64,000 bases of DNA. Source: Selenomonadaceae bacterium. GTDB taxonomy: Bacteria > Bacillota > Negativicutes > Selenomonadales > Selenomonadaceae. The notes beneath the pieces are model-generated. The model was not told the origin of the DNA and searched no databases. It saw only the letters and a program-made list of their open reading frames with translations. Shown piece by piece: positions 1 through 22,769 of this stretch (its first letter is position 1; each line of letters begins with the position of its first letter). The position numbers and the translations under genes are program-made. Location: assembly GCA_022773425.1 (NCBI GenBank), contig JALFBM010000031.1, positions 13,905 through 77,904 of the forward strand, read 5' to 3'.

Positions 1-1149
1 GACATCCGAGATCAGGATGTCCTTCGGGCCCATGACCTCCCGCACGTCGATGAGCGCGCGCTGCGGCTTTACCGGATAGCTGTTATCGTCCGCATAACCC
101 GTGTGCTCGGCCACCATGCGCGCACGGATGGCCAGAATCTCCTCGGGTTCCTTTGTCCGCGTCGTTGCCGAGCGGATGCGCTCGAGGGCGTCCCCGATAT
201 CGCCGACGACGCTGACCTCCGGCTGATAGTCGCGGTTGATATCGGCCGGCCGGCGGTCGATATGCAGGATCCGCGTGCCCGGCGTAAACCATTTCGACGG
301 CGCGTACTCGATGATGTCGTAGCCGACCGCGATGACGAGGTCGGCTTTTTCGAGCACGCGCGTCTGATAGTCTGCCATCGGGATGCCGACCGTCCAGAGC
401 GCGTAGGGGCTCGTGAACGGGATCGCACCCTTTGCCATCATCGTGTTCACGACCGGGAGCTTGAGCTCCTCGGCAAAGCGCGTGAGCTCCGGCGCCGCCC
501 CGCTGCGGATCAGGCTCGCGCCGGCGAGGATGACCGGGTTCTCGGCCTTCTCAATCAGCGCGGATGCCTTCCGGATGGCATTTTCCGTCGCGTACTCGAC
601 CGGCTGATGCTGCGGCAGCAGGGGCCGCTCTCCTTTCCGGACCGGCATTTTCGCGACATTGACCGGCAGGTCGATAAACGTCGCGCCGGATTTTTCCTGC
701 TCGGCGTATTTGAACGCGAGCCGCACGATTTCCGCCATTGAATCCGGATGAACGACTGTATAGGCGCGCCGCGTAATCGGCTCAAACATCGCGCGCAGGT
801 CGAGATATTGATGCGCCGTGATATGCATGCGGTCGCTGTGCACCTGCCCGGAAATCGCGACGAGCGGCGCACCGTCGCTGTCCGCGTCCGCGACGCCCGT
901 GATCAGGTTCGTCGCGCCCGGGCCGAGCGTCGACAGACAGACCCCGGCCTTGCCCGTCAAGCGCCCGTAGACGTCCGCCATGAAGGCCGCGCCCTGCTCG
1001 TGCCGCACCGTGATGAAGCGGATGGAGGAGTCCTTCAGCGCCTCGAGCACCGCGAGATTCTCCTCTCCGGGGATGCCGAAGATGCAGCGCACGCCCTCGG
1101 CCTCCAGGCATTCCACCAGAAGCTCCGCCGTATTCTTTTCCTGACCCAT
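1..1149 (-). CDS. Thiamine-diphosphate-dependent acetolactate synthase-like enzyme (N-terminal 383 aa; 3' end runs off the window)
   Basis: Absent from the ORF track because it has no in-window stop. Reverse reading from ATG 1149..1147 gives MGQEKNTAELLVECLEAEGVRCIFGIPGEENLAVLEALKDSSIRFITVRHEQGAAFMADVYGR..., the AlsS/IlvB-type TPP enzyme N-terminal domain. The frame stays open to position 1. It lies 12 nt downstream of the hutD-like stop. Confidence 0.8.
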   Translation of the reverse strand, partial: MGQEKNTAELLVECLEAEGVRCIFGIPGEENLAVLEALKDSSIRFITVRHEQGAAFMADVYGRLTGKAGVCLSTLGPGATNLITGVADADSDGAPLVAISGQVHSDRMHITAHQYLDLRAMFEPITRRAYTVVHPDSMAEIVRLAFKYAEQEKSGATFIDLPVNVAKMPVRKGERPLLPQHQPVEYATENAIRKASALIEKAENPVILAGASLIRSGAAPELTRFAEELKLPVVNTMMAKGAIPFTSPYALWTVGIPMADYQTRVLEKADLVIAVGYDIIEYAPSKWFTPGTRILHIDRRPADINRDYQPEVSVVGDIGDALERIRSATTRTKEPEEILAIRARMVAEHTGYADDNSYPVKPQRALIDVREVMGPKDILISDV

Positions 1150-1161
1150 GATATCATCCTT

Positions 1162-1734
1162 TCATTTCCGCTGTACGGCAGCATGTATGAGCTGCGCATC
1201 GTCCGTCCTGCCCTGCCGGATCCGCGTGATGCCCGGCCGCTCCAGATGCAACAGGCTCCCCTCCATCAGATGGATGTTCTCGTGCCGGGTGTCGAGGAAG
1301 AAATCGCCGCGATACGCGTAGTAGAAATCCTCCTCCGCCCCGTCCAGAAGGCAAGGAAAGTTATCCAGCGCTTCCAGCGCGACCTCAAACGGCGCGTCCT
1401 TCGCCCACATGACGTTGAAGTCCTGGCACCGGCCGCGGCTGATCGTCTTTGCGCCGCCATCGAAGAAATCCGTCTGGAATGGCAGGAGCGCAATCGGCTG
1501 CTCCTCGTCATGCGTCAGCTGGACAGGAGCGGAAAGCGGCATCAGCACGCGATGGAACGCGGGCAGCGGCGTAAAGGTCGATTCGTCCGTTTCCACCGTC
1601 GCCGAGCTCAACCGCAGGGTGAAGTCCCTCGCGGCGTAGTCCGCCGCTCCGCCCGCGATATAGAGCTCGCGCGTCTGTCCGCCCGACCACTGCGCGACCG
1701 GCTGATTTTCCAGCGGGATGATCTGTATCTTCAT
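1162..1734 (-). CDS. hutD: HutD/Ves-family protein
   Basis: 190-aa ORF. MKIQIIPLENQPVAQWSGGQTRELY fits the HutD N-terminal W-x-GG-x-T-x-E pattern as I recall it. The start overlaps the hutI stop (ATGA at 1731-1734). Confidence 0.55.
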   Translation of the reverse strand: MKIQIIPLENQPVAQWSGGQTRELYIAGGAADYAARDFTLRLSSATVETDESTFTPLPAFHRVLMPLSAPVQLTHDEEQPIALLPFQTDFFDGGAKTISRGRCQDFNVMWAKDAPFEVALEALDNFPCLLDGAEEDFYYAYRGDFFLDTRHENIHLMEGSLLHLERPGITRIRQGRTDDAQLIHAAVQRK

Positions 1735-3029
1735 GATGCTGCCCCCTCGTAAACGATGGCGCCGTCCTTCAGCACGGCCTGCACCAGGCTGAGGCCCGTC
1801 TTATAGGAAAGATACCGGTAGTCCGGCGCGTCGAGCAATACGATGTCGCCGCGCTTCCCGGGCTCGATGCTGCCGATCTCCTCGGCCCGTCCGACGGCCG
1901 CGGCCGCGTTCAGCGTGACTGCCGTCAGCGCCTCGGCCGCCGTCATGTGCATGGCGATGACTGCCAGCGCGAAGACGAGCGGCAACGAATACGTATAGCA
2001 GCTGCCCGGGTTGTCATCGCTCGCGAGCGCGACGGCTGCTCCGCTGTCGATAAGCTTGCGCGCGGGCGCATAGGGCATCCGCATGCAAAACGCCGTCGCC
2101 GGCAGCAGTACCGCAACCGTCTGCCCTGTGGCGAGCTCCCGAATGCCCGCCTCGCTGACCGACAGCAGATGATCGGCGCTGACCGCGCGGAGCTCGGCCG
2201 CGAGCTCCGCGCCGCCCGTGCTGCTCATCTCGTCCGCATGCAATTTCAGCATAAAGCCGAGATCCCGCGCTTTTTCGAGAATCTTTCGCGCTTCGCCGGT
2301 CGTGAACACACCCGTCTCACAAAACACATCGACGAAATCCGCCAGCCCCTGTTCCCGCACGAGCGGCAGCATTTCCCGGCAGATGAAGTCCACATAGTCC
2401 CCGGAGCGCCCCTGATACTCCGGCGGCACGGCGTGCGCGCCGAGATACGTGGGGACGACCGTCGCCGGCGTCTCTTGGTCAAGGCGCCGCAGTACGCGCA
2501 GAAGACGCAGCTCGGTCTCGCGGTCGAGGCCATAGCCGCTTTTCCCCTCGACCGTCGTGATGCCGAGCGCCAGCATCGCCCGCAGCGTCTTTTCCCCCGC
2601 CGCAAAAAGCGCGTCCTCGTCCATCGCCCGCGTCGCGCGCATCGTCGCGACGATGCCGCCGCCACGCTTCAGAAGTTCCAAATAGGGGACGCCTGCCAGG
2701 CGGTCATCAAATTCCTGCGCACGCGCACCGCCGAACAGAAAATGCGTGTGCGGATCGATAAAGCCAGGCACCGCACATTTCCCTTTGCCGTCCAGCACGA
2801 TGGTCTCCTGCTGCGGGCTGCCGGAAAGCGCCAGCCGCACCGCATCACACGCCGCCGCTGCCTCGCTCAGCACCGCCTCCTCTTTGCCTGCCGCACGGAT
2901 CACGCCGTCCTCGATCCATACCGCCGCGCCAGAGGTGATGGAAAGCTCTCTCATCGCCCCGCCGTGCCGCGCGCTCCTTCCCGTCGGTGTCGCGAGCTGC
3001 GCGATCCCCCGGATGATCGTCTCCTGCAT
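1731..3029 (-). CDS. hutI: Imidazolonepropionase
   Basis: Amidohydrolase fold with PGFIDPHTHFLFGG, KLHADE and ASDDNPGS motifs, in a hut neighbourhood. Start moved to ATG 3029 (MQETIIRG); the ORF-track start at 3080 is an upstream extension. Confidence 0.9.
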   Translation of the reverse strand: MQETIIRGIAQLATPTGRSARHGGAMRELSITSGAAVWIEDGVIRAAGKEEAVLSEAAAACDAVRLALSGSPQQETIVLDGKGKCAVPGFIDPHTHFLFGGARAQEFDDRLAGVPYLELLKRGGGIVATMRATRAMDEDALFAAGEKTLRAMLALGITTVEGKSGYGLDRETELRLLRVLRRLDQETPATVVPTYLGAHAVPPEYQGRSGDYVDFICREMLPLVREQGLADFVDVFCETGVFTTGEARKILEKARDLGFMLKLHADEMSSTGGAELAAELRAVSADHLLSVSEAGIRELATGQTVAVLLPATAFCMRMPYAPARKLIDSGAAVALASDDNPGSCYTYSLPLVFALAVIAMHMTAAEALTAVTLNAAAAVGRAEEIGSIEPGKRGDIVLLDAPDYRYLSYKTGLSLVQAVLKDGAIVYEGAAS

Positions 3030-3132
3030 AAGCGTCACGCCTTTCTTCCCAAATCTCTGGATATAGAGAAACGGCTGCACCTCACGTGCACCCGTTTCCT
3101 TTATTCCCGCGCTTTCCTAGCCTAGGCGGATA

Positions 3133-5139
3133 TCAGAACAGCTTCGCCACTTCTTTTTTCACCAGCTCGTCATCGGCAAGGCACGGCTCCGTAACGTGCG
3201 CACTCTGTGCGAAATCTTCATTAAATTTCTGAATGGTCTCCATCGAATGCGCGTTCCTCGCCCAGCTGCGGCGCGCGACACCGCTGATGACATCCCAGAG
3301 CAGGGCGCTCTTGATGATGTTGTCGACGCGCTCGCTGCCGTCCAGTACGAGGCCAAAGCCGCCGTTGACGGACTTGCCGATACCGACGCCGCCGCCGTTG
3401 TGCAGAGCACAGAGGCTCATGCCGCGCGCTGCGTTGCCGGCGAAGCACTGCACCGCCATATCCGCCATGACGTTGCTGCCGTCCTTGATGTTCGCGGTCT
3501 CGCGGAACGGCGAATCCGTGCCCGAGACATCGTGATGATCGCGGCCCATCATCACGGGGCCGATCTTGCCCTCGCGCACGAGCTCGTTGAACTTCAGCGC
3601 GATGCGGATGCGCCCCTCGGCATCCTGATAGAGGATGCGCGCCTGCGTGCCGACGACGAGGTTGTTCTTCTCCGCGTCGCGGATCCAGTTGTAGTTGTCG
3701 CGGTCCTGGTAGCGGCGGTTCGTATCGATGCAGCTCATCGCCGCCTTATCCGTCTCGATGAGATCCTCATGCTTGCCGGACAGGCAGACCCAGCGGAACG
3801 GGCCATAGCCGTAATCGAACAGCTGCGGGCCCATGATGTCCTCGACGTACGACGGCAGCGTGAAGCCGTCCTTATCGTCGACGCCATTCTTGGAGAGCTC
3901 CTTGACGCCAGCATCGTAGACCGCCTTCAGGAACGAATTGCCGTAGTCGAAGAAATACGTGCCGTCCCTGACGCAGGTCATGATGAGCTCGTACTGATGG
4001 CGCAGGCTCTTGTTGACGAGCTGCACGAACTGCCCACGGTCCTCCGCGAGCATCTTCGTGCGTTCCTCAAACGTCAGGCCCTGCGGGCAGTAGCCGCCTT
4101 CATAGGCCGCGTGACAGGAAGTCTGGTCGCTCATGAGATCGACGTGGATATGGTTCTTGACGACGTATTCGAGCAGGTCGACGATGTTGCCGTGATAGGC
4201 GATCGACGTCGCGGTCTTTGCCGCGAGGTGCTGCTTTGCCGAGGCGAAGACCTCGTCGAGGCTGTCATAGCATTCGCTGCACCAGCCCTGGTCGAGACGC
4301 GTCTGAATGCGTGACATATCGACCTCAGCGATGACGCCGACCGCGTGTGCGATTTCCGCTGCTTTCGGCTGCGCGCCGCTCATGCCGCCCATGCCCGAGC
4401 TCACGAACAGATGTCCCGCGAGGTTGCCGTCCTCCGGTACGCCGAGATGCATGCGGCCGGCATTCAGGAGCGTGTTGTACGTGCCGTGCACGATGCCCTG
4501 CGGCCCGATGTACATCCAGCCGCCGGCCGTCATCTGGCCGTAGTTTGCGACGCCCATTTCCTCGGCGATCTCCCAGTCCTTCGGATTATCGAATTCGCCG
4601 ACCATCAACGCGTTCGTGATGATGACGCGCGGGGCCGTCGGCTTCGACGGGAACAGGCCGAGCGGATTGCCGCTTTCCATGACGAGCGTCTGGTGATCCG
4701 TCATGACCTCGAGATACTTCTTGATCAGGCGGTACTGCAGCCAGTCATGGCAGACGCTGCCCGTCTCGCCATAGGTCACCAGTTCATACGGATACAGGCC
4801 GACCTCGAAGTCCAGGTTGTTGTCGATCATGACCTGGAAGGCCTTGCCCTCAAGACAATTGCCCTTGTACTCGTCGATTGGCTTGCCGTAGATGCGCCCT
4901 GCCGGACGGTAGCGGTACGCATAGATCCGGCCATACGTCTTGAGCTCCTGCAGGAATTCCGGAATGAGTTTTTCATGCAGACTCGGGTCGACATAGCGGA
5001 GCGCGTTCTTGAGCGCGGTCTCCGTCTGCGCCTGCGTCAAGTGAAACCCGCGGGATGGAGCGCGGCGGATGCCTGGTACAAAAGCCGGCATCTCCGGATA
5101 CTCCGTGATCGGTGGAATGCAAAATGGCTGTGCTTTCAT
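3133..5139 (-). CDS. hutU: Urocanate hydratase (long ~670-aa form)
   Basis: 668-aa ORF with YGETGSVCHDWLQY and GQMTAGGWMYIGPQGIVHGTYNT. A TAGGAG RBS precedes ATG 5139. Thiourocanate-type specificity cannot be excluded from sequence alone. Confidence 0.9.
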   Translation of the reverse strand: MKAQPFCIPPITEYPEMPAFVPGIRRAPSRGFHLTQAQTETALKNALRYVDPSLHEKLIPEFLQELKTYGRIYAYRYRPAGRIYGKPIDEYKGNCLEGKAFQVMIDNNLDFEVGLYPYELVTYGETGSVCHDWLQYRLIKKYLEVMTDHQTLVMESGNPLGLFPSKPTAPRVIITNALMVGEFDNPKDWEIAEEMGVANYGQMTAGGWMYIGPQGIVHGTYNTLLNAGRMHLGVPEDGNLAGHLFVSSGMGGMSGAQPKAAEIAHAVGVIAEVDMSRIQTRLDQGWCSECYDSLDEVFASAKQHLAAKTATSIAYHGNIVDLLEYVVKNHIHVDLMSDQTSCHAAYEGGYCPQGLTFEERTKMLAEDRGQFVQLVNKSLRHQYELIMTCVRDGTYFFDYGNSFLKAVYDAGVKELSKNGVDDKDGFTLPSYVEDIMGPQLFDYGYGPFRWVCLSGKHEDLIETDKAAMSCIDTNRRYQDRDNYNWIRDAEKNNLVVGTQARILYQDAEGRIRIALKFNELVREGKIGPVMMGRDHHDVSGTDSPFRETANIKDGSNVMADMAVQCFAGNAARGMSLCALHNGGGVGIGKSVNGGFGLVLDGSERVDNIIKSALLWDVISGVARRSWARNAHSMETIQKFNEDFAQSAHVTEPCLADDELVKKEVAKLF

Positions 5140-5187: not shown

Positions 5188-6522
5188 TTATCTCTCTTCC
5201 AGGTGCCGCATGGTCGCGCGGATTTTCCCGAGCAGTTCCGGTTCGCCAAGGCGGACCAGTCGGCCCTCTCTCACCGTGTCCTCGCCGTTGACCACCACGC
5301 GGTCAATCGCCGTCGGCTGCAGCGCGTAGATCAGGTTCGGCAGGAACTGCCCGTTGCCGGATAGCGGCTGCATGGAAAGGTCGTCGAGATTCACGCCGAC
5401 GAAATCCGCCATGCACCCGGGCTCTATGGCGCCGACCGGCAGGTCGAGCGCCTTCGCGCCATTCACCGTGCCCATATCCATCGCGTCCCGGTAGTTGACG
5501 CAGAGCGCGTCAAGCGTCTTTGCCTTCTGCAGGATCGGTGCCATGCGCATTTCTTCGAACACGCTGTTGCGGTTGTTGCCGCAGGCGCCATCGCTGCCAA
5601 GCGCCACGGGAACCTTCGCCCGCAGGAACGCGGGAATATCCGTGATGCCGTCGGCGAGGAACATATTGCTCGACGGACAGTAAATCAGATGCCCGCCTTT
5701 CGCGCCGAGCGTCCGGATCTCGTCCGGCGTCAGCCAAACACCGTGGATGATGGCGAGGTGCTCGTCCACGACGCCAAGTTCGTCGAGGTACGCCAGCGGC
5801 GTCATCCCGTATTTTTTCTGCACCTGCTCGACCTCGAACCGCTCCTCCGACACGTGGATGTGCATCGGCGTGTGGTATTTCACCGCGAGCGCGTGCCCTG
5901 CCTCGACCATTTCCGACGAGGCCGCGTGCAGGCTGTGCGGCGCCGGGATGACCTTGGCCATGCCGCCCGGATACTGCTTCATGAGGCTGTCGGTGTTGGC
6001 CTCCGCCTGCGCAACGCTCTCCACGTATCCCGCCGGGGCGCCGTCCCAGTCGTACATCGTGCGGGCGAGCACGAGGCGGATGCCGAGGTCATGCGCCGCA
6101 CGGATGACGGCCTCGTCCCCTGCCGTACCGTCGTTATGCAGGTAGAAGAAGTCACAGACCGTCGTCGCGCCGCATTTCATCATCTCCGCAAAGGAGAACA
6201 ACGCGCCCGTGTAGATATCCTCCGGCCTGAGCCGCGGGGAATACTTGTACAGGGACTCATCACGCCAGGTCAAAAACGGCTTGTCCGCCGCGATACCGCG
6301 GAGCAGACTCTGAAAGCTGTGGTTATGCGCGTTGACCGTGCCCGGGACGAGGGCGAGCCGCTCCCATCGCTCCGGCGCGAGTTCGGGATTCGCTTGTTCC
6401 AGAGCAGCCGCCGGTCCGACGGCCTTGATTTTCCCGCCCTTCGTCAACACGGCAAAATCCTTCTGCGCCGCGCCTGCGGTAAAGCAGAGCGCCGGCTCGA
6501 TCAGACGTCTTTTTTCCGTCAT
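5188..6522 (-). CDS. Amidohydrolase-superfamily deiminase, formimidoylglutamate deiminase (HutF)-like
   Basis: 444 aa with the metal motif PGTVNAHNHSFQSLLRG, plus HIHVSEE and GSDG. Length and hut context fit HutF. The substrate is not decidable by eye. Confidence 0.55.
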   Translation of the reverse strand: MTEKRRLIEPALCFTAGAAQKDFAVLTKGGKIKAVGPAAALEQANPELAPERWERLALVPGTVNAHNHSFQSLLRGIAADKPFLTWRDESLYKYSPRLRPEDIYTGALFSFAEMMKCGATTVCDFFYLHNDGTAGDEAVIRAAHDLGIRLVLARTMYDWDGAPAGYVESVAQAEANTDSLMKQYPGGMAKVIPAPHSLHAASSEMVEAGHALAVKYHTPMHIHVSEERFEVEQVQKKYGMTPLAYLDELGVVDEHLAIIHGVWLTPDEIRTLGAKGGHLIYCPSSNMFLADGITDIPAFLRAKVPVALGSDGACGNNRNSVFEEMRMAPILQKAKTLDALCVNYRDAMDMGTVNGAKALDLPVGAIEPGCMADFVGVNLDDLSMQPLSGNGQFLPNLIYALQPTAIDRVVVNGEDTVREGRLVRLGEPELLGKIRATMRHLEER

Positions 6523-7778
6523 TTCGGCAGCCTCCCATCCAAAAGTAACACCGCATCCAGCATGGTCTGTGCGGCAATCGCGACGGATTTCTCCGGCGCC
6601 GCCTCCTGCGGGCAGTGACTGTACCCATCGACCGTCGATACGAACAGCATACCCGCCTTCGTGACGCGTGCCAGGTTCGCCGCATCATGGCCAGCCATAC
6701 TCACGAGCTCGCGCCGCGGCTCATGCAGTGCCTCGGCCGCATCGCCGATGGCCTCGATGACCTCGCCTGCCATCGGCATCTCCGCCTGGTCGAGGTTCAA
6801 TTTACGCTCGATGACGACGCCGCGCGCCTGTTCTATTCCGCGGACGGCTTCGCCAAAATGCGCGAGCGCCGCAGCCCGCGTCTTAGGATTCGCCGTGCGC
6901 AGGTCAAGCGTCAGCATGACCTGCGCCGGCACGATGTTCGACGCGTTCGGCTGCGCCTGAATATGCCCGACCGTCGCCGCGAGATCCGGCGCCCCCCGCA
7001 TTAGATCCTCGACGGCAAGCACGATATCGGACGCCGCCGCAAGGGCGTCGCGCCGGTTCTCGAGCTGCGTAGTCCCCGCGTGGTTGGCCTCTCCGTGTAC
7101 GTAGAGGATCTCGCGGTAAATCCCGGTGATGCAGGTGACCGCGGCGATGTGCTCGCCGGCGTCGTAGAGGCGACGCCCCTGCTCGATATGACATTCGAGG
7201 AAGGCGGCGAGCCTGCCCTTCTCGAGCCGCGCGTCCTCGGCCACGCGGTGGATGTCGCCGCCGAGGCGGGCGATGGCCGTCTCCAGCGTCTCCCCCGTCA
7301 CGCGGTTTCGGATCTGCTCGAGATCTTTTTCCACGAGCCGCCCGCATAGCACCTTCGAGCCAAGCGTCGACACGGAAAAATCGCTCGGTTCCTCACCGGT
7401 CATAGACAGCGTCCAAACCGGATGCCGGAGCGCTGCCCCGTTCTCGAGGAGCGTCTGCACGACCTCCGTCGCCATCAGCACGCCGAGTGCGCCGTCATAG
7501 GCGCCGCCGTTCGGCACGGTATCGTGATGCGAGCCGAGTACAATCGGTTTCCCCGCCGCGGCGCCACAGGGCTTCCCCCATAGGTTCGCTATGGCATCGG
7601 TATGTACACCGAGCCCGATGTTTTCCCAAAGGGCCTTGAGCCAGGCGCGCGCCTCGCTGTCCGCCGGGCTCGCGAGCTGGCGGTCGATGCCGCCCGCCGC
7701 GTTCCGCCCGATTTTCGCAAGCTCCCTGAGCTTCTCCTGCAGGCGCGCCGCATTCACGCGCAGACGATTTCCGGCCAT
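6519..7778 (-). CDS. M20-family Zn amidohydrolase (N-carbamoyl-L-amino-acid hydrolase / allantoate amidohydrolase type)
   Basis: Motifs LGSHHDTVPNGGAYDGALGV, MTGEEPS and HGEANHAGTT. Start set to ATG 7778, 8 nt after AAAGGAG. The stop overlaps the next start (ATGA 6519-6522). Confidence 0.75.
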   Translation of the reverse strand: MAGNRLRVNAARLQEKLRELAKIGRNAAGGIDRQLASPADSEARAWLKALWENIGLGVHTDAIANLWGKPCGAAAGKPIVLGSHHDTVPNGGAYDGALGVLMATEVVQTLLENGAALRHPVWTLSMTGEEPSDFSVSTLGSKVLCGRLVEKDLEQIRNRVTGETLETAIARLGGDIHRVAEDARLEKGRLAAFLECHIEQGRRLYDAGEHIAAVTCITGIYREILYVHGEANHAGTTQLENRRDALAAASDIVLAVEDLMRGAPDLAATVGHIQAQPNASNIVPAQVMLTLDLRTANPKTRAAALAHFGEAVRGIEQARGVVIERKLNLDQAEMPMAGEVIEAIGDAAEALHEPRRELVSMAGHDAANLARVTKAGMLFVSTVDGYSHCPQEAAPEKSVAIAAQTMLDAVLLLDGRLPK

Positions 7779-7826
7779 GAGCATCGCTCCTTTCTCTTGC
7801 CGCTGCCCGATGTTCCCCATCAAGGA

Positions 7827-8837
7827 TCAGAGATACGAACCGTCAAGCACATCCTCCGGCGCGACCGGCTTATCGATCAGCTTCAGCTCCGTCCAAAGAT
7901 CCGATGCCATCTTCGCTACCTTGTAGAAATCGCCGGGGTTCTCCTTCGTGCCGAAATACTTCTTGTTGCCCTCTTCGTCGTAAAACGTGACGTCCTGCAG
8001 CTCGCTCTTGACGTTCTCCGGCTTCTCACCGAGATGCTTCGCGATGATATCGATGGCCTCGTCCGGATGTTCCTTCAGGAACCGGATGGCGTCATACCAT
8101 GCGGCCGTAATGCCCTTTACTGCCTCCGGATGCGCCTGGATGAAGTCCTTGCGCATCGCGAACGTATCGACGATGATGCCCGGGGTCGCCTTGCTGTCCA
8201 TCAGCGTATGCCCGAAATCGGTCTTCGAGGCCTTCGAGAGCCACGGCTGCCACGTGATGGCGGCGTCGACCTTGCCCGCGACGAACGCCGCACCGGCATC
8301 GCCAGCCGCCATGTTCTGTACATCAAAGTCCTTGATGCTCATGCCCTTCTGATGAAGTAGATACTGGAACCAGAAGAAATCCGCGCCACCGGTCGTATCC
8401 AGCGCGACCTTCTTCCCCTTCAGATCTTCCAGGGAATTGTACTCCTTCTTCGCGATAATGCCATCGCCGCCAGAGGACGTATCGAGCGCCAGGACACAGG
8501 CGAGGTCGATGCCGCTGCTCGCGTTGACAATCTGCGTATCGATCGTCGTCGACACGCCCTGAATGCGTCCCGCGGCGAGCGCGCTCTTGCTGTCCGCCTT
8601 GGACTCAATCGACTGAACCTCGACATTGACGCCATGATCCTTGAAAAAGCCCTTATCCTCCGCGATATAGAACGGCGCAAAGCCGATCCACGACGCCTGC
8701 CCGATGATGATTTTATCGCCCGCGCCGGACGAGCTGCTGCTCGTAGCAGCCTGCTTCGTGCCGCCGCAGCCAGCTGCCACGGCCACAAGTGCTGCCGACA
8801 GGGTAACGGCGAAAACTTTCTTCCAAAATGCTTTCAT
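7827..8837 (-). CDS. ABC transporter substrate-binding lipoprotein, NitT/TauT (NMT1/THI5-like) family, copy 1
   Basis: Lipobox (LVAVAAGCGG) and an NMT1-like core (WIGFAPFYIAEDKGFF...VALDTTGGADFFW). Start at ATG 8837 (MKAFWKK) after AGAGGGGGG. Confidence 0.8.
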   Translation of the reverse strand: MKAFWKKVFAVTLSAALVAVAAGCGGTKQAATSSSSSGAGDKIIIGQASWIGFAPFYIAEDKGFFKDHGVNVEVQSIESKADSKSALAAGRIQGVSTTIDTQIVNASSGIDLACVLALDTSSGGDGIIAKKEYNSLEDLKGKKVALDTTGGADFFWFQYLLHQKGMSIKDFDVQNMAAGDAGAAFVAGKVDAAITWQPWLSKASKTDFGHTLMDSKATPGIIVDTFAMRKDFIQAHPEAVKGITAAWYDAIRFLKEHPDEAIDIIAKHLGEKPENVKSELQDVTFYDEEGNKKYFGTKENPGDFYKVAKMASDLWTELKLIDKPVAPEDVLDGSYL

Positions 8838-8876
8838 GATGAATACCCCCCTCTGGGAAATACAAAAACGATCCAT

Positions 8877-9293
8877 TCAATCCATGAGGCACAGCGTGCC
8901 CGTCTCCACATTGAGGTCAGCGGACTTGCCATCCAGTTTCCCGCTCGCCGCGGCCTGGTAAAATTCCTCCGGCATGCGGTTCACGAGCGGCAGATCGAAG
9001 ATGATCGCGCTCGCTGCCAGCGTCGTATCCGCATCGCGGACGATGATGGCAGCGGGGCCCTTGCCCGTGAGCTTCAGCTGGTACATGCCGTCCGCCTGGA
9101 CGACGGAACTGCCCTTGCCATACGGGAAGACGAGGATTTTCCCCGTCACGCACTGCCCGTAAAGGCAATGCTGCTTCTCGATGATCTTCCCGGTTTTCGG
9201 GTCGATCAAATAAAAGCAAATCGGATCCTCCGAATAAAGAAGCTCGCCGGACGCCTTTCCACCGGCAATTTTATGGCAGGAAAAAGTTTTCAT
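8877..9293 (-). CDS. Aconitase X small (swivel, DUF126) subunit
   Basis: 138 aa from ATG 9293 (MKTFSCHKIAGGKASGELLY); GKILVFPYGKGSSV and PAAIIV fit DUF126. A GGAGG RBS is present. The ORF-track start at 9446 overlaps the upstream gene. 0-nt gap to the binding-protein start region. Confidence 0.75.
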   Translation of the reverse strand: MKTFSCHKIAGGKASGELLYSEDPICFYLIDPKTGKIIEKQHCLYGQCVTGKILVFPYGKGSSVVQADGMYQLKLTGKGPAAIIVRDADTTLAASAIIFDLPLVNRMPEEFYQAAASGKLDGKSADLNVETGTLCLMD

Positions 9294-9307
9294 CCGAATT
9301 CCTCCTC

Positions 9308-10507
9308 TCAATACTCGCCCGCGAGGGCGGCTTCGACGGAATCTTTCAGCGGCGCGAGAACGAAATCCATCTGACGGCGCTTTGTGTAGTACGCGCATTT
9401 CGGGGAATCCGTGATCCCGCGCTTGCCGTAGAGGAATTTCCAGCACGGCTGGTCCATGCAGGTATCGTCGATGATCCAGCCGCCGGCCTCGCGAATGATG
9501 GCCTCGTAACCCATCTTCTCCGCTAGATTCTTCGTCAGCGACGACGTCATGATGAACATCGGCACCGCGAGCTTCTTGCCTTTGACGATCTCCGCGATCG
9601 TCGTGACCTGGTCAATCGTAAAATGCGGGCAGCCGTATAGCGCGAAATCAATCTTTCCGCCCGGCGCCGTGAGCTCGCTGCGCATCGTCTCGAGGTCCGC
9701 CCGCGTGATCGTGACTTCCTTTTTCGGCTTCTTTCCCTGGAACGCCGCCTCGCGCGTCGGCGCTTCCGGCGTGAAGCCGACGATATGGTAAAGTGCGACG
9801 TTGCCGCCCGTATTGAGCTGCGCGCCGAGGTTCATCAGCGCTTCCTTCGACGGGTTTTCGAGCCCCTCGAAAACCGGTACGCCGAAGCCCGTCTTGCGCG
9901 GTGCAAAATAACCGAGCATCTGATAGTCGAAATCGTCCTGCATATCCGCCTCAACGTGGACGAGAACATCACCCGCCCGGTTCTCATCGAGCAGATAGCC
10001 GTAGTAAGGCGTCACACCGGTCACCGCGGAGCAAAGCGCGCTCTGCGCGGCCTCGCGATTCGTCCGCGCGCCGTAAACCGAATTGACAAACGGCGTCGCA
10101 CTGGACTCGGAGAACGAGAGGATCTCCCCGAAGCGCGGTACGTTGCGCTCGAGGTACGGCGTGCAATCATACGTCATGATGGCGCCGAGCTTGGTGTAGG
10201 CCGCGTGCGTGCGCTTGACGATGGAAAGATCCTCCGGTTCCACATGCGTGAAGGCTTCGCATTGCTTCCAATTAAAACTCGGGTTAACCGTCGGACGCAC
10301 GCGACAGTGCGCGCCGCCCTCTGCCAGACGTTCGGCAAACCACAGATCCGCCTCCTGATTGCTCAGCGCGACATGCGTGCGCGTAACCGGCACCATATAC
10401 GGCGCATCATAGGCTTCGCCGATCGCAACGAGTACCTTCATGGCGAGCTGCGTACCCGGCCCGTATTTGCCATCGAGCATGGCCTGTTCTTCTGCTTTTA
10501 GTTTCAT
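9308..10507 (-). CDS. Aconitase X large (catalytic, DUF521) subunit
   Basis: 399 aa from ATG 10507 (MKLKAEEQAMLDGKYGPGTQLAMKVLVAIGEAYDA), the typical DUF521 N-terminus. A GAGGAGG RBS is present. Confidence 0.8.
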   Translation of the reverse strand: MKLKAEEQAMLDGKYGPGTQLAMKVLVAIGEAYDAPYMVPVTRTHVALSNQEADLWFAERLAEGGAHCRVRPTVNPSFNWKQCEAFTHVEPEDLSIVKRTHAAYTKLGAIMTYDCTPYLERNVPRFGEILSFSESSATPFVNSVYGARTNREAAQSALCSAVTGVTPYYGYLLDENRAGDVLVHVEADMQDDFDYQMLGYFAPRKTGFGVPVFEGLENPSKEALMNLGAQLNTGGNVALYHIVGFTPEAPTREAAFQGKKPKKEVTITRADLETMRSELTAPGGKIDFALYGCPHFTIDQVTTIAEIVKGKKLAVPMFIMTSSLTKNLAEKMGYEAIIREAGGWIIDDTCMDQPCWKFLYGKRGITDSPKCAYYTKRRQMDFVLAPLKDSVEAALAGEY

Positions 10508-10600
10508 GTTGTCCTGCCTCCTCAACGATACGCCATCGCGGTATGTTTGATGGGCACATTCTCTCGTTTTTAGGATTGATGATATTATTCATCCGAAGGA

Positions 10601-10646
10601 AAACAAAAAGGTGTTCAAGACAGTTTTCTCTGTCTCGAACACCTTT
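10601..10646 (-). terminator. Rho-independent terminator after rpiR-like gene
   Basis: About 16-bp imperfect stem (aaaggtgttcaagacag / ctgtctcgaacaccttt), followed on the minus strand by TTTTTGTTTT. Confidence 0.65.
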
Positions 10647-10713
10647 GTTCTCTATCTACGTTTAGAATACCACGAGGCTTACAGTATGTCAATATGATTC
10701 CCTTTTGTATACA

Positions 10714-11583
10714 TTATTTTGTAAAGTACACCATATTCCGCTTCTCGATGTCCTCGATGGCGTCGATGCGACTCTTGAGTTGCGGCATCTGTGCGGCGGC
10801 ATCCTGCAGCATCAGGTTCAGAAACGTCAGCGGCGTCCCATATACGTCAAACAGAGCCCCCGTCGTAATCGGCACGCAAACCGCATGGTCGACGACCGGC
10901 ACGAGCGGCGAAAAGGTACTGTCCGTCAACCCGGTGATCGGAATGCCCTTCTCCTTGATGATCCGGCATTTCTCAATCAGCGTGCGGGAGTACCGCGGGA
11001 ACGCCACCGCGAGGATGTTTACATCCTCCGGGGAAAGCAGCTCGAGCGTCTCAAAATCCCGCGTCGCCGGCAGGACGGTCGAGACGTTCTCCCGCATTTT
11101 CCCGAGAATATACGCCGCGTATGGCAGCAGCGTCGCCGACATCCGCGCAGAAATCAGAATCAGCCGCTTCGGCGAGAGCACCATCGAAAGCATGGCCTGA
11201 TAGGCCGGCCCGAGGAAGGCTTTCTCCAGGCCATCGAGGTTGCGGATCTCACTGTCGAGTATGGGGCGCCTTGCGCTGCCCTTGTGGTGATGCCCCTTCG
11301 GGCTGCTGTAATGAAGGCGTTCCGGCGCCGTGAGCTTCTTGAGCATCACCTGCTGCAGATTGCGCAGGAATTCGTTGTAGCCATGATAGCCGAGCATCAT
11401 GAAGAACCGCGATACGCTCCCCTGCGAGACACCCATATCGTCCGCGAGCTCGCTCGCCGTCATGAAGATGATCTGCAGATAATTCTTCTCGATGTACAAC
11501 GCGATTTTTTGATTGGTCGGCGACTGCTTGGCCGCATTGGCAAGCAGCAGCGAAAGCTGTTCCGGCGTCTCAAAGGCTGGCAT
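10714..11583 (-). CDS. MurR/RpiR-family transcriptional regulator (HTH + SIS)
   Basis: HTH region MTASELADDMGVSQGSVSRFFMMLGYHGYNEF plus a C-terminal SIS domain. Start set to ATG 11583 (MPAFETPEQ, AAGGAG RBS) because a near-consensus promoter overlaps the ORF-track start. Confidence 0.8.
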   Translation of the reverse strand: MPAFETPEQLSLLLANAAKQSPTNQKIALYIEKNYLQIIFMTASELADDMGVSQGSVSRFFMMLGYHGYNEFLRNLQQVMLKKLTAPERLHYSSPKGHHHKGSARRPILDSEIRNLDGLEKAFLGPAYQAMLSMVLSPKRLILISARMSATLLPYAAYILGKMRENVSTVLPATRDFETLELLSPEDVNILAVAFPRYSRTLIEKCRIIKEKGIPITGLTDSTFSPLVPVVDHAVCVPITTGALFDVYGTPLTFLNLMLQDAAAQMPQLKSRIDAIEDIEKRNMVYFTK

Positions 11584-11617
11584 ATGGCGTTTCTCCTTTT
11601 CTAACCGATTCCATTTC

Positions 11618-11647
11618 ATTATAGTCAGCCTCTTTCTTCTTTGTCAA
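11618..11647 (-). promoter_or_regulatory. Sigma-70/SigA-type promoter for rpiR-like gene
   Basis: On the minus strand: TTGACA (11647..11642), 18-nt spacer, TATAAT (11623..11618). Confidence 0.6.
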
Positions 11648-11684
11648 GAAAGCCCCGCTTTCCTCAGACAGCCATTCCACCGCT

Positions 11685-12932
11685 TTATGTTGCGGAGGAG
11701 AGGAGTTCCAGGCGCGGATTTTTCTTCACCTCGGGAAGCAATGCGCCGCTGACCTCGATTTCCTGCAGCGACAGCGTATTCTTGATGCGAACGATTTTTG
11801 CCTGTTCCGGGCGCACGCCGCGACAGAGCTTCAGAGCAATACGGACTGCCTCATCTTCGTCCCTTGCCTGCAGCGGAATCCTGGCATCCTCGACACAGCG
11901 GCAGGCAATCGCGTTCGCGTACATCGCCTCAAAATCGATGTTGGGCAGAATGTTCTTCGTGATGACGTCGAAGAGACCGATGCCGATGGCATTGCCATGC
12001 GAAGCCTCCGTAACATCGAGAAGGACCATGCGCGAAATGGCTGGAATCGGCACGAGAAAGTCATCCCGCGCCGTGCTGCGCCCGACGATGTTCGGGTCAA
12101 AGCCGGCGCCGGAAACATCCTTGCCGATTTCCTTCATCACGAGCACGTCAATGGACGGGAGCAGCAGCCCCGGGAAATAGCCGATGGATTTCTGGACGAG
12201 AGCCTTCTCCTCCTCGATCAGCGTTTCCCGCGGCAAAGCGTGAATCTCCGCCGTCTCGTCGAGGGCATTCTCAAGGATAGCGAGGCCGAAGCCGACCGGC
12301 GCCTTCTGCAGAATCATCCGCGCAGCTTCTTCTAGAACCGATGCAAACCGGCTGCTCGGCGTCCCGTGAATTTCCGTGCACCCGCGCTGATTGCCGAGCC
12401 CGATGACGAGCATCTTCGCAATGCCGCTCTGCAGCGGCCCGATGAAGTCCGTATGCAGTTTGATGCGATTGATCGGGACGATGAGGTCCGCGTTGTATGC
12501 CGTGCGGTCAAAATACACATGCGTGCCGTCTGCCAGCCGGCCGAGCTCGACCGTATCGACGTCCGTGATGACCGGTACGCCCATGTTCTCTTCGGTGATG
12601 CCGTAGGCGGCGAGCACCTCGCGCTGCCCTTCCTCCGTTCCGCCGCCATGGCTCCCCATGGCCGAGACGATGAAGGGCTTTACCCCCGCCGCCTGGAGTT
12701 CCCGCAGCACGCATTGCACCATGCAATCTAGATTCGCGATGCCGCGGCTGCCAACCGCGACGGCGACGCGGGCCCCCGGATGCAGCTTTTCCCGAATCGC
12801 AGCGCGCATACATTCCGCGTGAATGCGCGCGGGAATCGCCGCGCGCGGCAAGGTCACCGTATCGAAATGCTGGCGCACACGGTACAAACGGGGCAGGGGA
12901 TAGTCGTACTCCTGTGGCAATAGCAGCGGCAT
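11685..12932 (-). CDS. LarA-like (DUF2088, lactate-racemase N-domain family) protein
   Basis: 415 aa. VAVAVGSRGI / AMGSHGGGTEEGQ / INRIKLHTDFIGPLQSGIAKM line up by eye with the LarA topology. Assignment is from memory only. Confidence 0.5.
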   Translation of the reverse strand: MPLLLPQEYDYPLPRLYRVRQHFDTVTLPRAAIPARIHAECMRAAIREKLHPGARVAVAVGSRGIANLDCMVQCVLRELQAAGVKPFIVSAMGSHGGGTEEGQREVLAAYGITEENMGVPVITDVDTVELGRLADGTHVYFDRTAYNADLIVPINRIKLHTDFIGPLQSGIAKMLVIGLGNQRGCTEIHGTPSSRFASVLEEAARMILQKAPVGFGLAILENALDETAEIHALPRETLIEEEKALVQKSIGYFPGLLLPSIDVLVMKEIGKDVSGAGFDPNIVGRSTARDDFLVPIPAISRMVLLDVTEASHGNAIGIGLFDVITKNILPNIDFEAMYANAIACRCVEDARIPLQARDEDEAVRIALKLCRGVRPEQAKIVRIKNTLSLQEIEVSGALLPEVKKNPRLELLSSAT

Positions 12933-12955: not shown

Positions 12956-13765
12956 TCAGTTCTCCTCAAGCATCCTCTGCAGCTTCATGCGCAGGGCGAC
13001 GAAATCCTCCGTCTCCTTTAGGGACTGCTTGCGGTCGTACGGCAGATATACCGGAATGACCTCTCGGATACGGCCCGGACGCGCGCTCATGACGTAGATT
13101 TTCGAAGCGAGAAACACTGCCTCCTCGATATCATGCGTGACAAACGCGATGGTCGGCCGTTCTTTCTGCCAGATGCTGCGGATCAACTGCTGCATCTCCG
13201 ATTTGGTGATCGGGTCGAGCGCGCCGAACGGCTCGTCCATCAGCAGCAGTTCCGGATTGGTGGCGAGCGCGCGCGCGATCGCCACGCGCTGCTTCATACC
13301 GCCGGAAAGTTCCTTTGGATAAGCGTCACGGAAGCCCTTGAGCCGCATGAGCCCGAGATATTTGTCGATGATTTGCTCCTGCTCTTCCTTTGGCGTTCCC
13401 TTTTCCTTCAGGCCGTAAGCGATGTTTTCCGCGACGGTCATCCACGGGAACAGCGTATACGTCTGAAAGACCATGCCGCGGTCGGGGCCAGGCCCTTTGA
13501 CCGGGCGGTCCTTGATGACGATCTTCCCCTCGGTCGGAAAATCCAGCCCCGCGAGCATGCGCAGAAGTGTCGATTTGCCGCAGCCGGAGGTACCGACAAT
13601 GCAGACGAATTCATTCTCGAGCACTTCGACATTCACATCTTCGAGGGCCAGCGTCGTCTTAGCCTTGCTTTCATACCGCTTGACGATATGACTCGCACTG
13701 ATGATGGTGGAAGCGACCTTTGCCTCAATCGGCGTCGCCAGATTCGTCTCAGACAAGGACATCAT
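12956..13765 (-). CDS. ABC transporter ATP-binding protein, NitT/TauT family, copy 1 (no adjacent permease)
   Basis: Walker A GTSGCGKST, signature LSGGMKQR, Walker B LLLMDEPFGALD, H-loop THD. Start at ATG 13765 (MMSLSE) lies 17 nt inside the upstream PII gene. Confidence 0.85.
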   Translation of the reverse strand: MMSLSETNLATPIEAKVASTIISASHIVKRYESKAKTTLALEDVNVEVLENEFVCIVGTSGCGKSTLLRMLAGLDFPTEGKIVIKDRPVKGPGPDRGMVFQTYTLFPWMTVAENIAYGLKEKGTPKEEQEQIIDKYLGLMRLKGFRDAYPKELSGGMKQRVAIARALATNPELLLMDEPFGALDPITKSEMQQLIRSIWQKERPTIAFVTHDIEEAVFLASKIYVMSARPGRIREVIPVYLPYDRKQSLKETEDFVALRMKLQRMLEEN

Positions 13766-14096
13766 CCCCCTGCTGCCCGGTCCGGATGCGCAGCGCGCTC
13801 TCGGCCGGCAGTACAAAAATCTTGCCATCGCCCGGATGTCCCGTGGAGTTTTCCTTCATCAGGATATGGACGATCTTATCGACATCCGCATCGCGCGCAA
13901 AGATATCCAGATAGCGCTTTGCAATGAACCGGATCCCTACCGTTTCCTTTTCCTCGCTGTCGGTATGGAATACCACGCGCTGCCTGCCGCGGCCGATGAC
14001 CTCTTTCGTCGTCATCGCGTTGAAGCCGTTCTGGATCAGGATTCGCTTTGTCGCAAAATAGCGGTTGGGACGAATAATCGCTACGATTTCTCTCAT
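13749..14096 (-). CDS. PII-family signal protein, NifI2-like (extended T-loop)
   Basis: 115 aa with MREIVAIIRPN, GRGRQ and GDGKIFV. The T-loop carries an insertion (VVFHTDSEEKETVGIRFIAKRY). Confidence 0.7.
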   Translation of the reverse strand: MREIVAIIRPNRYFATKRILIQNGFNAMTTKEVIGRGRQRVVFHTDSEEKETVGIRFIAKRYLDIFARDADVDKIVHILMKENSTGHPGDGKIFVLPAESALRIRTGQQGDDVLV

Positions 14097-14423
14097 TCAG
14101 AGTTCCTCCTTCCCGGTCGAAACGGTATAGGCGGTCAGCACATCCTGCACAAAAATCTTGCCGTCGCCGAATGCACCCGTTTCCTCCGTGCGCGCCTCCT
14201 TTTCGATCGTCTTCACGACATCCTCCGCGTCTGCATCCTCAACGACCATGACGAGCATCTCTTTCGGGATTTCGTCGTAGTAGACGTCTCCGACCTTCAG
14301 TCCGCGCTGTTTGCCGCGGCCAAGCGCGCTGATGCGCGTGACGGAATTATGCCCTTTTTTCTCAAGCGCCGTAAGAACCGGCAATACCTTTTCCGGGCGT
14401 ATGATGGCTTTGATCATCTTCAT
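14097..14423 (-). CDS. PII-family signal protein, NifI1-like
   Basis: 108 aa with MKMIKAIIRPEK, GRGKQRGLKVGDVYYDEIPK and FGDGKIFV. 0-nt gap to the next PII gene. Confidence 0.7.
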   Translation of the reverse strand: MKMIKAIIRPEKVLPVLTALEKKGHNSVTRISALGRGKQRGLKVGDVYYDEIPKEMLVMVVEDADAEDVVKTIEKEARTEETGAFGDGKIFVQDVLTAYTVSTGKEEL

Positions 14424-21788: not shown

Positions 21789-22769
21789 TTACACGAGATC
21801 CGCACCGGGCTTTCCCTTCAGGACATGCACGGCGTTCTCCGCCGCCCGGCGCTGCAGATCTCCAAGTGCCTCCTCCGAATCATACGAGATATGCGGCGTG
21901 ACCTCGATGCCGGGGCAGTGCAGCACGGGATCGCGGGGATCGGGTGGTTCCTGCTCCAGGACATCGAGCACGGCGCCGCCGAGCTTTCCTTCCCTCACGG
22001 CCGCTATCAGCGCATTCGTATCGAGCACGCCGCCGCGCGCGGTATTGATGAGGATGGCATCCCGCTTCATCCTCGCGAGTTCCGCGGCGCCGATGAAATG
22101 ATGCGTTTCTTTGTCATAGCGCAGATGCAGGCTCACGATATCCGCGTCGGCCAGTCCTTCCGCCAGCGGCTGATAGCAGACGCCCGCGGCCGCTGCCCTT
22201 TCCGCGTTCAAATGCGGACTCCAGGCGCTGACGGAAAGACCGACCCCGCGCGCCTTTTGCGCCACTGCCCGTGCAATGGACCCGAAACCGACGAGGAACA
22301 GCTTCTTGCTGCTCAACCGGTGCAGGGGTTCTGGCATCGCGGCAGCGCCCCATTTCCCGGCCCGGATTTCCTCTTCAAACCCCGCGGTCGGCTTGTATCG
22401 CCGATAGAGAACCGACAACACGTAGTCCGCAATATCCTCCGCGCAGTAGCCTGGGATATAGCCGACGGCTATGCCGCGCGCCCGCGCCTCCTGCACATCA
22501 ATATTGTTATAGCCGGTACCATAGTTCGAGAGAATCCTGCAATGCGTCAGCTGCTCCATCTCCCGCGGCCCGATCTCGATATCGATCTGCGTCAGCACGG
22601 CGTCCGCCAGCGGGCCGTACCGGGAGAGATCCTCCCGATACGTCTTTGGCCCGGAAAAGGCCAGCTCGTAGCCGTCCGCGCCGAATGCCCGATCAAACAC
22701 CGTCTTTTCGCGTTCGTAATCCGCCCATTCATCGTCGATAATCCAGAAAAATGGTTTTTCCATCGTCAC
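21789..22769 (-). CDS. D-isomer-specific 2-hydroxyacid dehydrogenase
   Basis: 326 aa with NAD-binding GFGSIARAVA, then TARGGVLD and VTPHISY. The start overlaps the upstream ABC ATPase stop by 4 nt. Confidence 0.8.
   Translation of the reverse strand: MTMEKPFFWIIDDEWADYEREKTVFDRAFGADGYELAFSGPKTYREDLSRYGPLADAVLTQIDIEIGPREMEQLTHCRILSNYGTGYNNIDVQEARARGIAVGYIPGYCAEDIADYVLSVLYRRYKPTAGFEEEIRAGKWGAAAMPEPLHRLSSKKLFLVGFGSIARAVAQKARGVGLSVSAWSPHLNAERAAAAGVCYQPLAEGLADADIVSLHLRYDKETHHFIGAAELARMKRDAILINTARGGVLDTNALIAAVREGKLGGAVLDVLEQEPPDPRDPVLHCPGIEVTPHISYDSEEALGDLQRRAAENAVHVLKGKPGADLV

Follow-up and report, generated by a model that had tools for sequence, protein, structure and literature searches.

An aconitase X (AcnX) of two subunits, encoded in a 64,000-nucleotide stretch of a Selenomonadaceae bacterium (assembly GCA_022773425.1, contig JALFBM010000031.1, positions 13,905 to 77,904; here called the window), was found to be an integral and widely conserved member of a histidine utilization (hut)-type operon. 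Judged by sequence and gene order, it is possible, though at somewhat less than an even chance, that AcnX interconverts imidazole-lactate and urocanate and provides an entry into the Hut pathway that needs no histidase, while a LarA homologue encoded nearby racemises the hydroxy acid. The window belongs to a 1.9-Mb metagenome-assembled genome (MAG) that is 82% complete. An initial annotation of the region had noted the AcnX pair together with LarA and an RpiR regulator and had read them as a hydroxy-acid epimerase and dehydratase feeding 2-oxo acid oxidation; the observation was confirmed, and the interpretation is partly supported.

Pfam and NCBIfam profiles were matched to the open reading frames (ORFs) of the window, and scores in bits were compared with the family cutoffs. 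All genes of the module lie on the minus strand (Table 1). The DUF521 and DUF126 ORFs of the initial annotation were confirmed as the large (AcnXL) and small (AcnXS) subunits. Both exceeded the gathering scores of PF04412 and PF01989 and are encoded by separate genes, as in two-subunit Type-II AcnX. AcnXL starts at the ATG at 10507, which is preceded by a GAGGAGG ribosome-binding site; AcnXS follows after a gap of exactly 14 nucleotides and has a GAGGAGG site of its own. The closest solved structure to AcnXL was the large subunit of the Thermococcus kodakarensis enzyme (TkAcnX-L, 7cnr_A, E = 5e-68), and AcnXS matched 7cnr_B with E = 1e-22. In the alignment to 7cnr_A, AcnXL kept the equivalents of the Fe-S ligands Cys110, Cys283 and Cys342 as well as those of Glu129-Ser130-Ser131, Lys361, Tyr365 and Asn79. 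The catalytic serine (Ser62 of TkAcnX) was found in AcnXS within a GKGSSV motif in the alignment to 7cnr_B. Among 39 orthologues these cysteines and this serine are conserved; across the same set the AcnXL loop HVALSNQ-ADLWF is invariant save for one position, and the AcnXS motifs CFYL and SSVVQ-DG are conserved as well. By these features the pair is predicted to be an Fe-S hydro-lyase of a bacterial Type-II subclass without a characterised member. Its sequence fits the description of the bacterial subclasses Type-IIc to IIf, which are without the landmark residues of both known AcnX activities and are uncharacterised (PMC8184944).

Table 1. Features of the AcnX module and associated genes in the window (window positions; profile scores in bits)
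Feature	Position	Strand	Evidence
AcnX large subunit (AcnXL), bacterial Type-II subclass without characterised member	9308..10507	-	399 aa; PF04412 432.7
AcnX small (swivel) subunit (AcnXS)	8877..9293	-	138 aa; PF01989 93.2
LarA homologue	11685..12932	-	415 aa; Lar_N 44; NF052515 'NPN isomerase group 22' 486.9 (cutoff 400)
RpiR-family regulator	ORF 10714-11619, probable true start 11583	-	HTH_6 PF01418 35; SIS PF01380 42
rpiR-acnXL leader	10607..10692	-	promoter-like TTGACA-17-TATTCT with TG extension, then palindrome/terminator and T-run
Urocanase HutU, long form	3133..5139	-	668 aa; TIGR01228 425 (cutoff 375)
Imidazolonepropionase HutI	1731..3080	-	TIGR01224 453 (cutoff 298)
TRZ/ATZ-type amidohydrolase, candidate formiminoglutamate deiminase analogue	5188..6522	-	Amidohydro_1 194
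M20 hydantoinase/carbamoylase-family amidase, candidate N-formyl-/N-carbamoyl-glutamate hydrolase	6519..7823	-	TIGR01879 300 (cutoff 204)
NMT1/SsuA-type ABC substrate-binding protein	7827..8837	-	NMT1 97; TIGR01728 183
ABC ATPase directly upstream of LarA	12956..13828	-	ABC_tran 118; one transcription unit with LarA
D-2-hydroxyacid dehydrogenase (D2HADH)	21789..22769	-	2-Hacid_dh_C 169; here displaced to the IorAB/acyl-CoA synthetase block

Some database entries name the orthologues after one of the two known AcnX functions, hydroxyproline dehydratase or phosphomevalonate dehydratase, in keeping with membership in PF04412 and PF01989. For the window pair the probability of either function is negligible, and both were rejected on model scores, specificity residues and gene context. 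The hydroxyproline dehydratase model NF051439 gave 217.8 bits for AcnXL and 55 bits for AcnXS against a cutoff of 700. The substrate-specific residues of AtAcnX are Trp35, Thr72, Asp203 and Ile206 (PMC8184944). At the positions of Asp203, Thr72 and Trp35 the window proteins have a gap, Val and Tyr, and the Ile206 position falls in a rearranged loop of AcnXL to which no equivalent was assigned. The phosphate loop Gly48-Val49-Ser50 of TkAcnX is lost from AcnXL by a three-residue deletion; the Tyr of AcnXS occupies the specificity position that is Leu27 in the Thermococcus enzyme and Trp35 in AtAcnX. No match to the proline racemase family (PF05544) was found in the window genome (82% complete) or in any inspected neighbourhood. 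Mevalonate-pathway genes were absent from the AcnX neighbourhood, the genome as a whole not having been searched for them. The neighbours of AcnX are hut genes and not hydroxyproline or mevalonate genes. The earlier view that the substrate of the pair is an uncharacterised one was upheld, as was the observation that proline-racemase-like genes are missing.

A scan of 185,579 species genomes returned 38 orthologous AcnXL loci with 61-86% identity, and their neighbourhoods were counted within ±10 kb of AcnXL. The loci belong to Bacillota, Actinomycetota, a Thermotogae-labelled MAG and a Spirochaetia genome. Besides the latter two, the hosts are Selenomonadaceae, Pectinatus, Megamonas, Propionispira, Ruminococcus callidus, Faecalispora, Lachnospiraceae, Bifidobacterium, Liquorilactobacillus, Agrilactobacillus, Dethiobacter and Pelotomaculum. 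AcnXS adjoined AcnXL in all 38 loci. The urocanase gene hutU was present in 27 of them and an NMT1-type binding protein in about 27; D2HADH directly followed AcnXS in about 26, the M20 amidase and the TRZ/ATZ amidohydrolase stood directly upstream of AcnXL in about 24, and hutD was found in about 20. The 2-oxo acid oxidoreductase genes IorAB together with an ADP-forming acyl-CoA synthetase (ACS) were near AcnXL in six loci (ACS alone in three more), LarA in four and the histidase gene hutH in two. The usual order was M20 amidase, amidohydrolase, AcnXL, AcnXS, D2HADH, NMT1-type binding protein, hutU, hutI, permease, ATPase, hutD and RpiR. An interleaved AcnX/hut operon was also seen in the Pfam-annotated neighbourhoods of Agrilactobacillus composti, Ethanoligenens and two metagenomic contigs. 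When compared by tblastn, same-family AcnX pairs with 80-86% identity in four other genera lay inside a hut-type cluster with no LarA nearby. The loci of a Bifidobacteriaceae MAG and of Actinomyces consisted of AcnXL, AcnXS and D2HADH only, the Actinomyces locus with an importer in addition.

The module is therefore not merely placed between hut genes, as had first been noted, since AcnX is integral to the hut-type operon. The co-localisation of AcnXL with AcnXS and hutU recurred in other genomes, but that with LarA was confined to the four loci above and one metagenome contig, and the most conserved hydroxy-acid partner of AcnX is D2HADH and not LarA. Nothing relevant on DUF521/DUF126 together with urocanase or HutD was found in the literature searched. 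There, the AcnX/hut combination, the AcnX-centred operon without hutH and the LarA subclade described below are undescribed; the AcnX, LarA, RpiR and Hut families themselves are known.

All 28 checked genomes with an AcnX orthologue contained hutU, including ten in which it was not adjacent to AcnX. In 15 of the 28, hutH was not found. Among these were the isolates Pectinatus cerevisiiphilus, Agrilactobacillus composti, Liquorilactobacillus sicerae, Ruminococcus callidus and Propionispira arboris, and a chromosome-level Selenomonadaceae assembly. The HutH model TIGR01225 had no match in the window genome (82% complete), and hutH was also absent from the close relative Veillonellaceae SB90, whose gene order equals that of the window. 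By comparison, six out of six relatives of the window that carry hutU but no AcnX orthologue gave a hutH match. Within the genomes sampled, urocanase was found without histidase only where AcnX is present, which suggests that urocanate is supplied by the AcnX module or that the module accompanies its uptake.

From gene identities, synteny, LarA clade structure, retained catalytic residues and the occurrence of hutU without hutH, we infer a substrate, direction and regiochemistry for AcnX and a role for LarA. The NMT1-type ATP-binding cassette (ABC) system would import a histidine-derived imidazole hydroxy acid, most likely imidazole-lactate, which D2HADH could also form from imidazole-pyruvate. 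Where needed in the lineage of the window, a dedicated LarA subclade would invert C2, making either enantiomer usable. AcnX would then eliminate water from imidazole-lactate to give urocanate, HutU and HutI would convert urocanate to formiminoglutamate, and the TRZ/ATZ amidohydrolase and the M20 amidase would yield glutamate with release of ammonia and formate, or of CO2 and ammonia. IorAB, ADP-forming ACS, a thiamine pyrophosphate (TPP) enzyme, an aldehyde dehydrogenase and an iron-dependent alcohol dehydrogenase may process imidazole-pyruvate oxidatively, with RpiR as the putative regulator of the cluster. These oxidative genes lie beside AcnX in several genomes and fit an arylpyruvate-type, that is, imidazole-pyruvate, branch. 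D2HADH and LarA, the alternative neighbours of AcnX, both act at C2 of 2-hydroxy acids. The stronger form of the proposal is rather doubtful: AcnX would be a CoA-independent, non-radical Fe-S dehydratase that forms urocanate from the aryl-type 2-hydroxy acid imidazole-lactate and, with a dedicated LarA racemase and D2HADH, takes the place of histidine ammonia-lyase as the entry to the Hut pathway in many anaerobes from the gut, the rumen and fermented beverages. No relevant report of an imidazole-lactate dehydratase was found in the literature searched.

The 415-residue ORF upstream of rpiR, taken as LarA-like in the initial annotation, was assigned to group 22 of the isomerases that depend on nickel-pincer nucleotide (NPN) as their cofactor. 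The LarA proteins of metagenomic contig L046 and of P. cerevisiiphilus scored 516 and 495 bits on NF052515. As had been noted before, larB, larC and larE are missing from the window; in the genome, larB and larC were located on contig 50 and larE on contig 27, all above cutoffs. LarB was present in five out of five other genomes with an AcnX- or importer-linked LarA. By its gene content, the window genome is predicted to be able to make the NPN cofactor. A second LarA homologue on contig 4 (14594-15199; Lar_N 204 bits) is probably of the canonical lactate-racemase type, so the group-22 LarA is not the sole possible client of larBCE.

A maximum-likelihood tree placed the LarAs linked to AcnX or to an NMT1-type importer in one clade with 100/100 support on a long stem. 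This clade comprised the proteins of the window, three congeners, Veillonellaceae SB90, L046 and P. cerevisiiphilus, and was separate from the other group-22 members of the class, to which its identity was 37-42%. Members of the clade retain the Arg, the two catalytic His, the Lys that tethers NPN and the later His; their C-terminal substrate region differs. The motifs GSRG, GSHGG, K(L/P)HT (KLHT in the window) and (A/V)KM (AKM in the window), followed by His, were aligned to other group-22 members and agree with R-H-H-K-H, the signature given for the group in the Dataset of PMC7583248. Searching PDB sequences with LarA yielded no match, so the catalytic His and Lys were checked by motif against group-22 sequences only, and they were retained. 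Group 22 is listed as of 'unknown function' and has no characterised member (PMC7583248). LarA was found near AcnX in the four genome loci plus the metagenome contig L046, and among same-family relatives compared by tblastn it stood directly upstream of AcnXL only in the genus of the window. It is a rare addition to the AcnX module, restricted to this genus, one close relative and one metagenome contig.

The genome of P. cerevisiiphilus was informative for the role of LarA. There, LarA forms a stand-alone unit with a permease, an ATPase and a binding protein between housekeeping genes, scpAB and a dak2 gene, 36 kb from a cluster of hutD, RpiR, M20 amidase, amidohydrolase, AcnXL, AcnXS, hutI and hutU. 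This hut/AcnX cluster is without D2HADH, and the genome gave no hutH match. A LarA-importer unit in a genome whose AcnX lies with hut genes and without D2HADH points to an imported chiral 2-hydroxy acid. The layout is read most simply as import of such an acid, racemisation, dehydration by AcnX and Hut-type degradation. In strain DSM 20467 (L024) the importer ATPase appears fragmented, with only a 127-aa ORF in a 1.1-kb gap at 5322-6449.

The chief rival explanation assumes the same AcnX reaction in reverse. Urocanate would be imported and partly hydrated by AcnX; D2HADH, after inversion by LarA where needed, would produce imidazole-pyruvate, which IorAB and the ADP-forming ACS would convert to imidazole-acetate with a gain of ATP, and the Hut enzymes would take the remainder. 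Uptake of urocanate would make hutH dispensable, and the hydration of enoates is close to equilibrium. The gene order of some loci agrees with such a route. AcnX lies directly between hutU and IorA-IorB-ACS in loci of Ruminococcus callidus, Huintestinicola, Lachnospiraceae and Clostridiales. Contig L046 carries LarA, RpiR, AcnXL, AcnXS and the binding protein as in the window, then ABC genes, D2HADH, IorAB, ACS and two PII genes, with no hut genes nearby. In most loci, however, IorAB/ACS were not found within 10 kb, and in P. cerevisiiphilus, where LarA is co-operonic with the importer and AcnX is accompanied by neither D2HADH nor Ior, hydration and racemisation would be useless. Overall, we consider this route unlikely. 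The direct proximity of the module to IorAB and ACS in some genomes does make its link to 2-oxo acid oxidation, which the initial annotation had postulated, a real one; the partnership of LarA and AcnX postulated with it is exceptional.

The function suggested in that annotation corresponds to a further alternative, in which LarA epimerises C2 of a 2,3-dihydroxy acid of the sugar-acid type, or AcnX acts on a 3-hydroxy-2-amino acid, and 2,3-dehydration by AcnX gives a 2-oxo acid for D2HADH or IorAB, both of which handle such a product; the hut genes would be mere neighbours. This agrees with the known regiochemistry, because in both characterised AcnX enzymes the 3-hydroxyl is removed together with the proton on C2 (PMC8184944). 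Group-22 LarAs elsewhere are found with IlvD/Edd dehydratases, short-chain dehydrogenases/reductases (SDRs), sugar kinases, LarE and tripartite ATP-independent periplasmic (TRAP) transporters (PMC7583248, Table S1). However, none of the inspected AcnX-linked clusters contained a sugar kinase, aldolase, SDR or IlvD/Edd gene, and the AcnX-linked LarAs are a separate clade with a changed substrate region. The model also leaves the hut linkage unexplained, as one operon interleaves AcnX with hut genes across phyla and every checked genome with AcnX also has hutU, and it leaves HutU and HutI without a substrate where hutH is missing. It is possible, but with a probability we would put low.

Still less probable is a role of AcnX and D2HADH downstream of the Hut pathway or alongside it, acting on a hydroxy acid derived from glutamate or 2-oxoglutarate or on a breakdown product of the unstable imidazolone-propionate. 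The M20 amidase, amidohydrolase, AcnXL, AcnXS and D2HADH form the most conserved block, which is kept in Faecalispora without adjacent hutU and hutI. The adjacent D2HADH resembles phosphoglycerate dehydrogenase, and enzymes of that type reduce 2-oxoglutarate. Against these points, there is no chemically plausible Fe-S dehydration of 2-hydroxyglutarate, and both the occurrence of hutU without hutH and the co-operonic arrangement of LarA with an importer would be left unexplained. In the two Faecalispora loci (L062/L063) the order is M20 amidase, amidohydrolase, AcnXL, AcnXS, D2HADH, binding protein, permease, ATPase, hutD and RpiR; hutU and hutI lie elsewhere in these genomes, which have two to three hutH-like genes, at least one above cutoff.

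Several points weigh against the dehydration of imidazole-lactate by AcnX. Known aryl-lactate dehydrations proceed via CoA esters and radical enzymes. Imidazole-lactate has a 2-hydroxyl and a poorly activated C3 proton, unlike the known AcnX substrates, and the 3-hydroxy isomer, which suits AcnX chemistry, does not suit LarA or D2HADH. Enzymes of the aconitase superfamily handle both substrate hydroxyl positions, which offers a parallel for an AcnX acting on a C2 hydroxyl, as an analogy and not as evidence. Simple import of urocanate might also explain the loss of hutH. The set without hutH includes several incomplete MAGs, and genomes that are related do not count as independent samples. The steps beyond HutI are themselves predictions, because the amidohydrolase is nearer to uncharacterised amidohydrolases and purine-type deaminases than to HutF and the M20 enzyme scores below all equivalog cutoffs.

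The promoter that the initial annotation had assigned to rpiR was confirmed, together with a terminator-like hairpin. The promoter is a perfect sigma-70 site, TTGACA-18-TATAAT, at 11647-11618. In the region 11581-11623 the -10 box and the first ATG of the longest ORF overlap; the probable start codon is therefore the in-frame ATG at 11583, which sits behind AAAGGAG and gives a protein of 289 aa. The ORF reached no NCBIfam equivalog. A hairpin at 10646-10607, with a stem of 17 bp and a T-run, lies in the interval that separates the rpiR stop from acnXL. The promoter-like site and the palindrome of the leader are kept, with compensatory changes, in Veillonellaceae SB90 (L048). A search of the leader for a riboswitch gave no Rfam match; it may serve as a leader attenuator, as the terminator of rpiR or as an operator for RpiR. 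In many genera, orthologues of RpiR border the hut/AcnX cluster, and from this position RpiR is the predicted regulator of the whole cluster there. The phosphorylated or sugar-acid effector that had been suggested from the SIS domain is unsupported, because no sugar or sugar-acid genes accompany RpiR.

The remaining genes of the cluster were assigned with differing precision. The stop codon of AcnXS (8879-8877) does touch the first ATG (8876) of the binding-protein ORF, which had been described as abutting. The start at 8837, which has an AGGGGGG site and would give an N-terminus resembling a signal peptide, is the better one, so the gap is probably 39 nucleotides. The M20 amidase scored 356 bits on an ErtE-like model, below its cutoff. 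The amidohydrolase gave 189-232 bits on HutF models, again below cutoffs; its closest structures were uncharacterised amidohydrolases (E ~2e-51), followed by methylthioadenosine/S-adenosylhomocysteine and 8-oxoguanine deaminases, and HutF was matched at 1e-30. PDB neighbours of the amidohydrolase, D2HADH and binding protein did not narrow the substrate.

HutU of the window is 85% identical to the sole HutU of a Selenomonadaceae relative (L028/L053) whose cluster also has hutH, and it is for this reason regarded as a genuine urocanase. Long-form urocanases (~670-690 aa, with an ~80-aa N-terminal extension) score only ~430 bits on TIGR01228, compared with 700-945 bits for canonical HutU elsewhere in Negativicutes; the urocanase adjoining true hutH genes in this class is also of the long form. 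An ergothioneine/thiourocanate pathway was considered and set aside, because the urocanase scored 303 and 345 bits on the models of that pathway, far below their cutoffs of 930 and 880, passed the HutU model and is orthologous to HutU beside true hutH. At window positions 1-1734, hutI is followed by hutD and an acetolactate-synthase-like TPP enzyme, at the place where sister species have hutH. AcnX clusters with this TPP enzyme were also seen in Ethanoligenens, Ruminococcus callidus and Lachnospiraceae. The ATPase-LarA order was also seen in L021-L023 and L048. At 12956-14423 the longest ATPase ORF overlaps the second of two PII genes by 80 nucleotides, so its true start is probably later. The order PII-PII-ATPase-LarA is kept in the genus of the window and in L048; in L046, PII-PII-ATPase follows ACS.

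If the imidazole-lactate proposal is true, it would provide the first function for one of the bacterial AcnX subclasses left open by Watanabe et al. (2021) and the first substrate for LarA group 22, and it would explain the many anaerobes that have urocanase and imidazolonepropionase yet no histidase. Its confirmation would broaden the range of reactions in the aconitase superfamily, adding the aconitase-type dehydration of an aryl-lactate. Among gut metabolites, imidazole-lactate, urocanate and imidazole-propionate are of medical interest, and bacterial consumption or production of imidazole-lactate would alter models of histidine-derived metabolite pools.

Compared with known systems, the window AcnX shares superfamily and fold with the hydroxyproline dehydratases, and the role as a dehydratase within an amino-acid catabolic cluster. 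It differs from them in its score far below the model cutoff, in pyrrolidine-specific residues that are not conserved, in its Type-II set of Cys ligands and in having no hydroxyproline pathway genes. The mevalonate-5-phosphate dehydratase of T. kodakarensis (AcnX Type-IIb; PDB 7CNR/7CNS; PMC8184944) has the same two-subunit architecture and is the best structural-sequence match, with the three Cys ligands, the catalytic Ser, the carboxylate/hydroxyl-binding Glu-Ser-Ser, the Lys and the Tyr in common. In the window enzyme, however, the Gly-Val-Ser phosphate loop is replaced by the conserved HVALSNQ-ADLWF loop and Leu27 of the small subunit by Tyr, and the host is bacterial with a hut gene context. 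The window LarA resembles group 22 (PMC7583248; NF052515) in passing the family model, in its catalytic, NPN- and Ni-binding motifs and in the presence of larBCE in the genome. Unlike the rest of the group, which is usually found with sugar-acid genes, window-type LarAs form a distinct clade (~40% identity) in which the C-terminal substrate region is altered and the genes are associated with an NMT1-type ABC importer and AcnX.

The canonical Hut pathway consists of HutH, HutU and HutI, then HutF/HutG or FtcD. In the AcnX-linked operon HutU and HutI score above their equivalog cutoffs, HutD is encoded as well, and the deiminase-like amidohydrolase and the amidase could complete a five-step-type route. 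In contrast to the canonical pathway, HutH is frequently missing, the last two enzymes come from non-canonical families, and AcnX, D2HADH or LarA, and an ABC importer are inserted in the operon. The phenyllactate dehydratase FldABC converts an aryl-lactate to an aryl-acrylate downstream of a D-2-hydroxyacid dehydrogenase. The transformation proposed for AcnX, and its position after a D-2-hydroxyacid dehydrogenase, would be alike. Enzymes of the FldABC type use CoA esters and a radical mechanism, whereas the AcnX operon is without CoA-transferase or activator genes and the reaction proposed here would be carried out by a CoA-independent, aconitase-type Fe-S enzyme.

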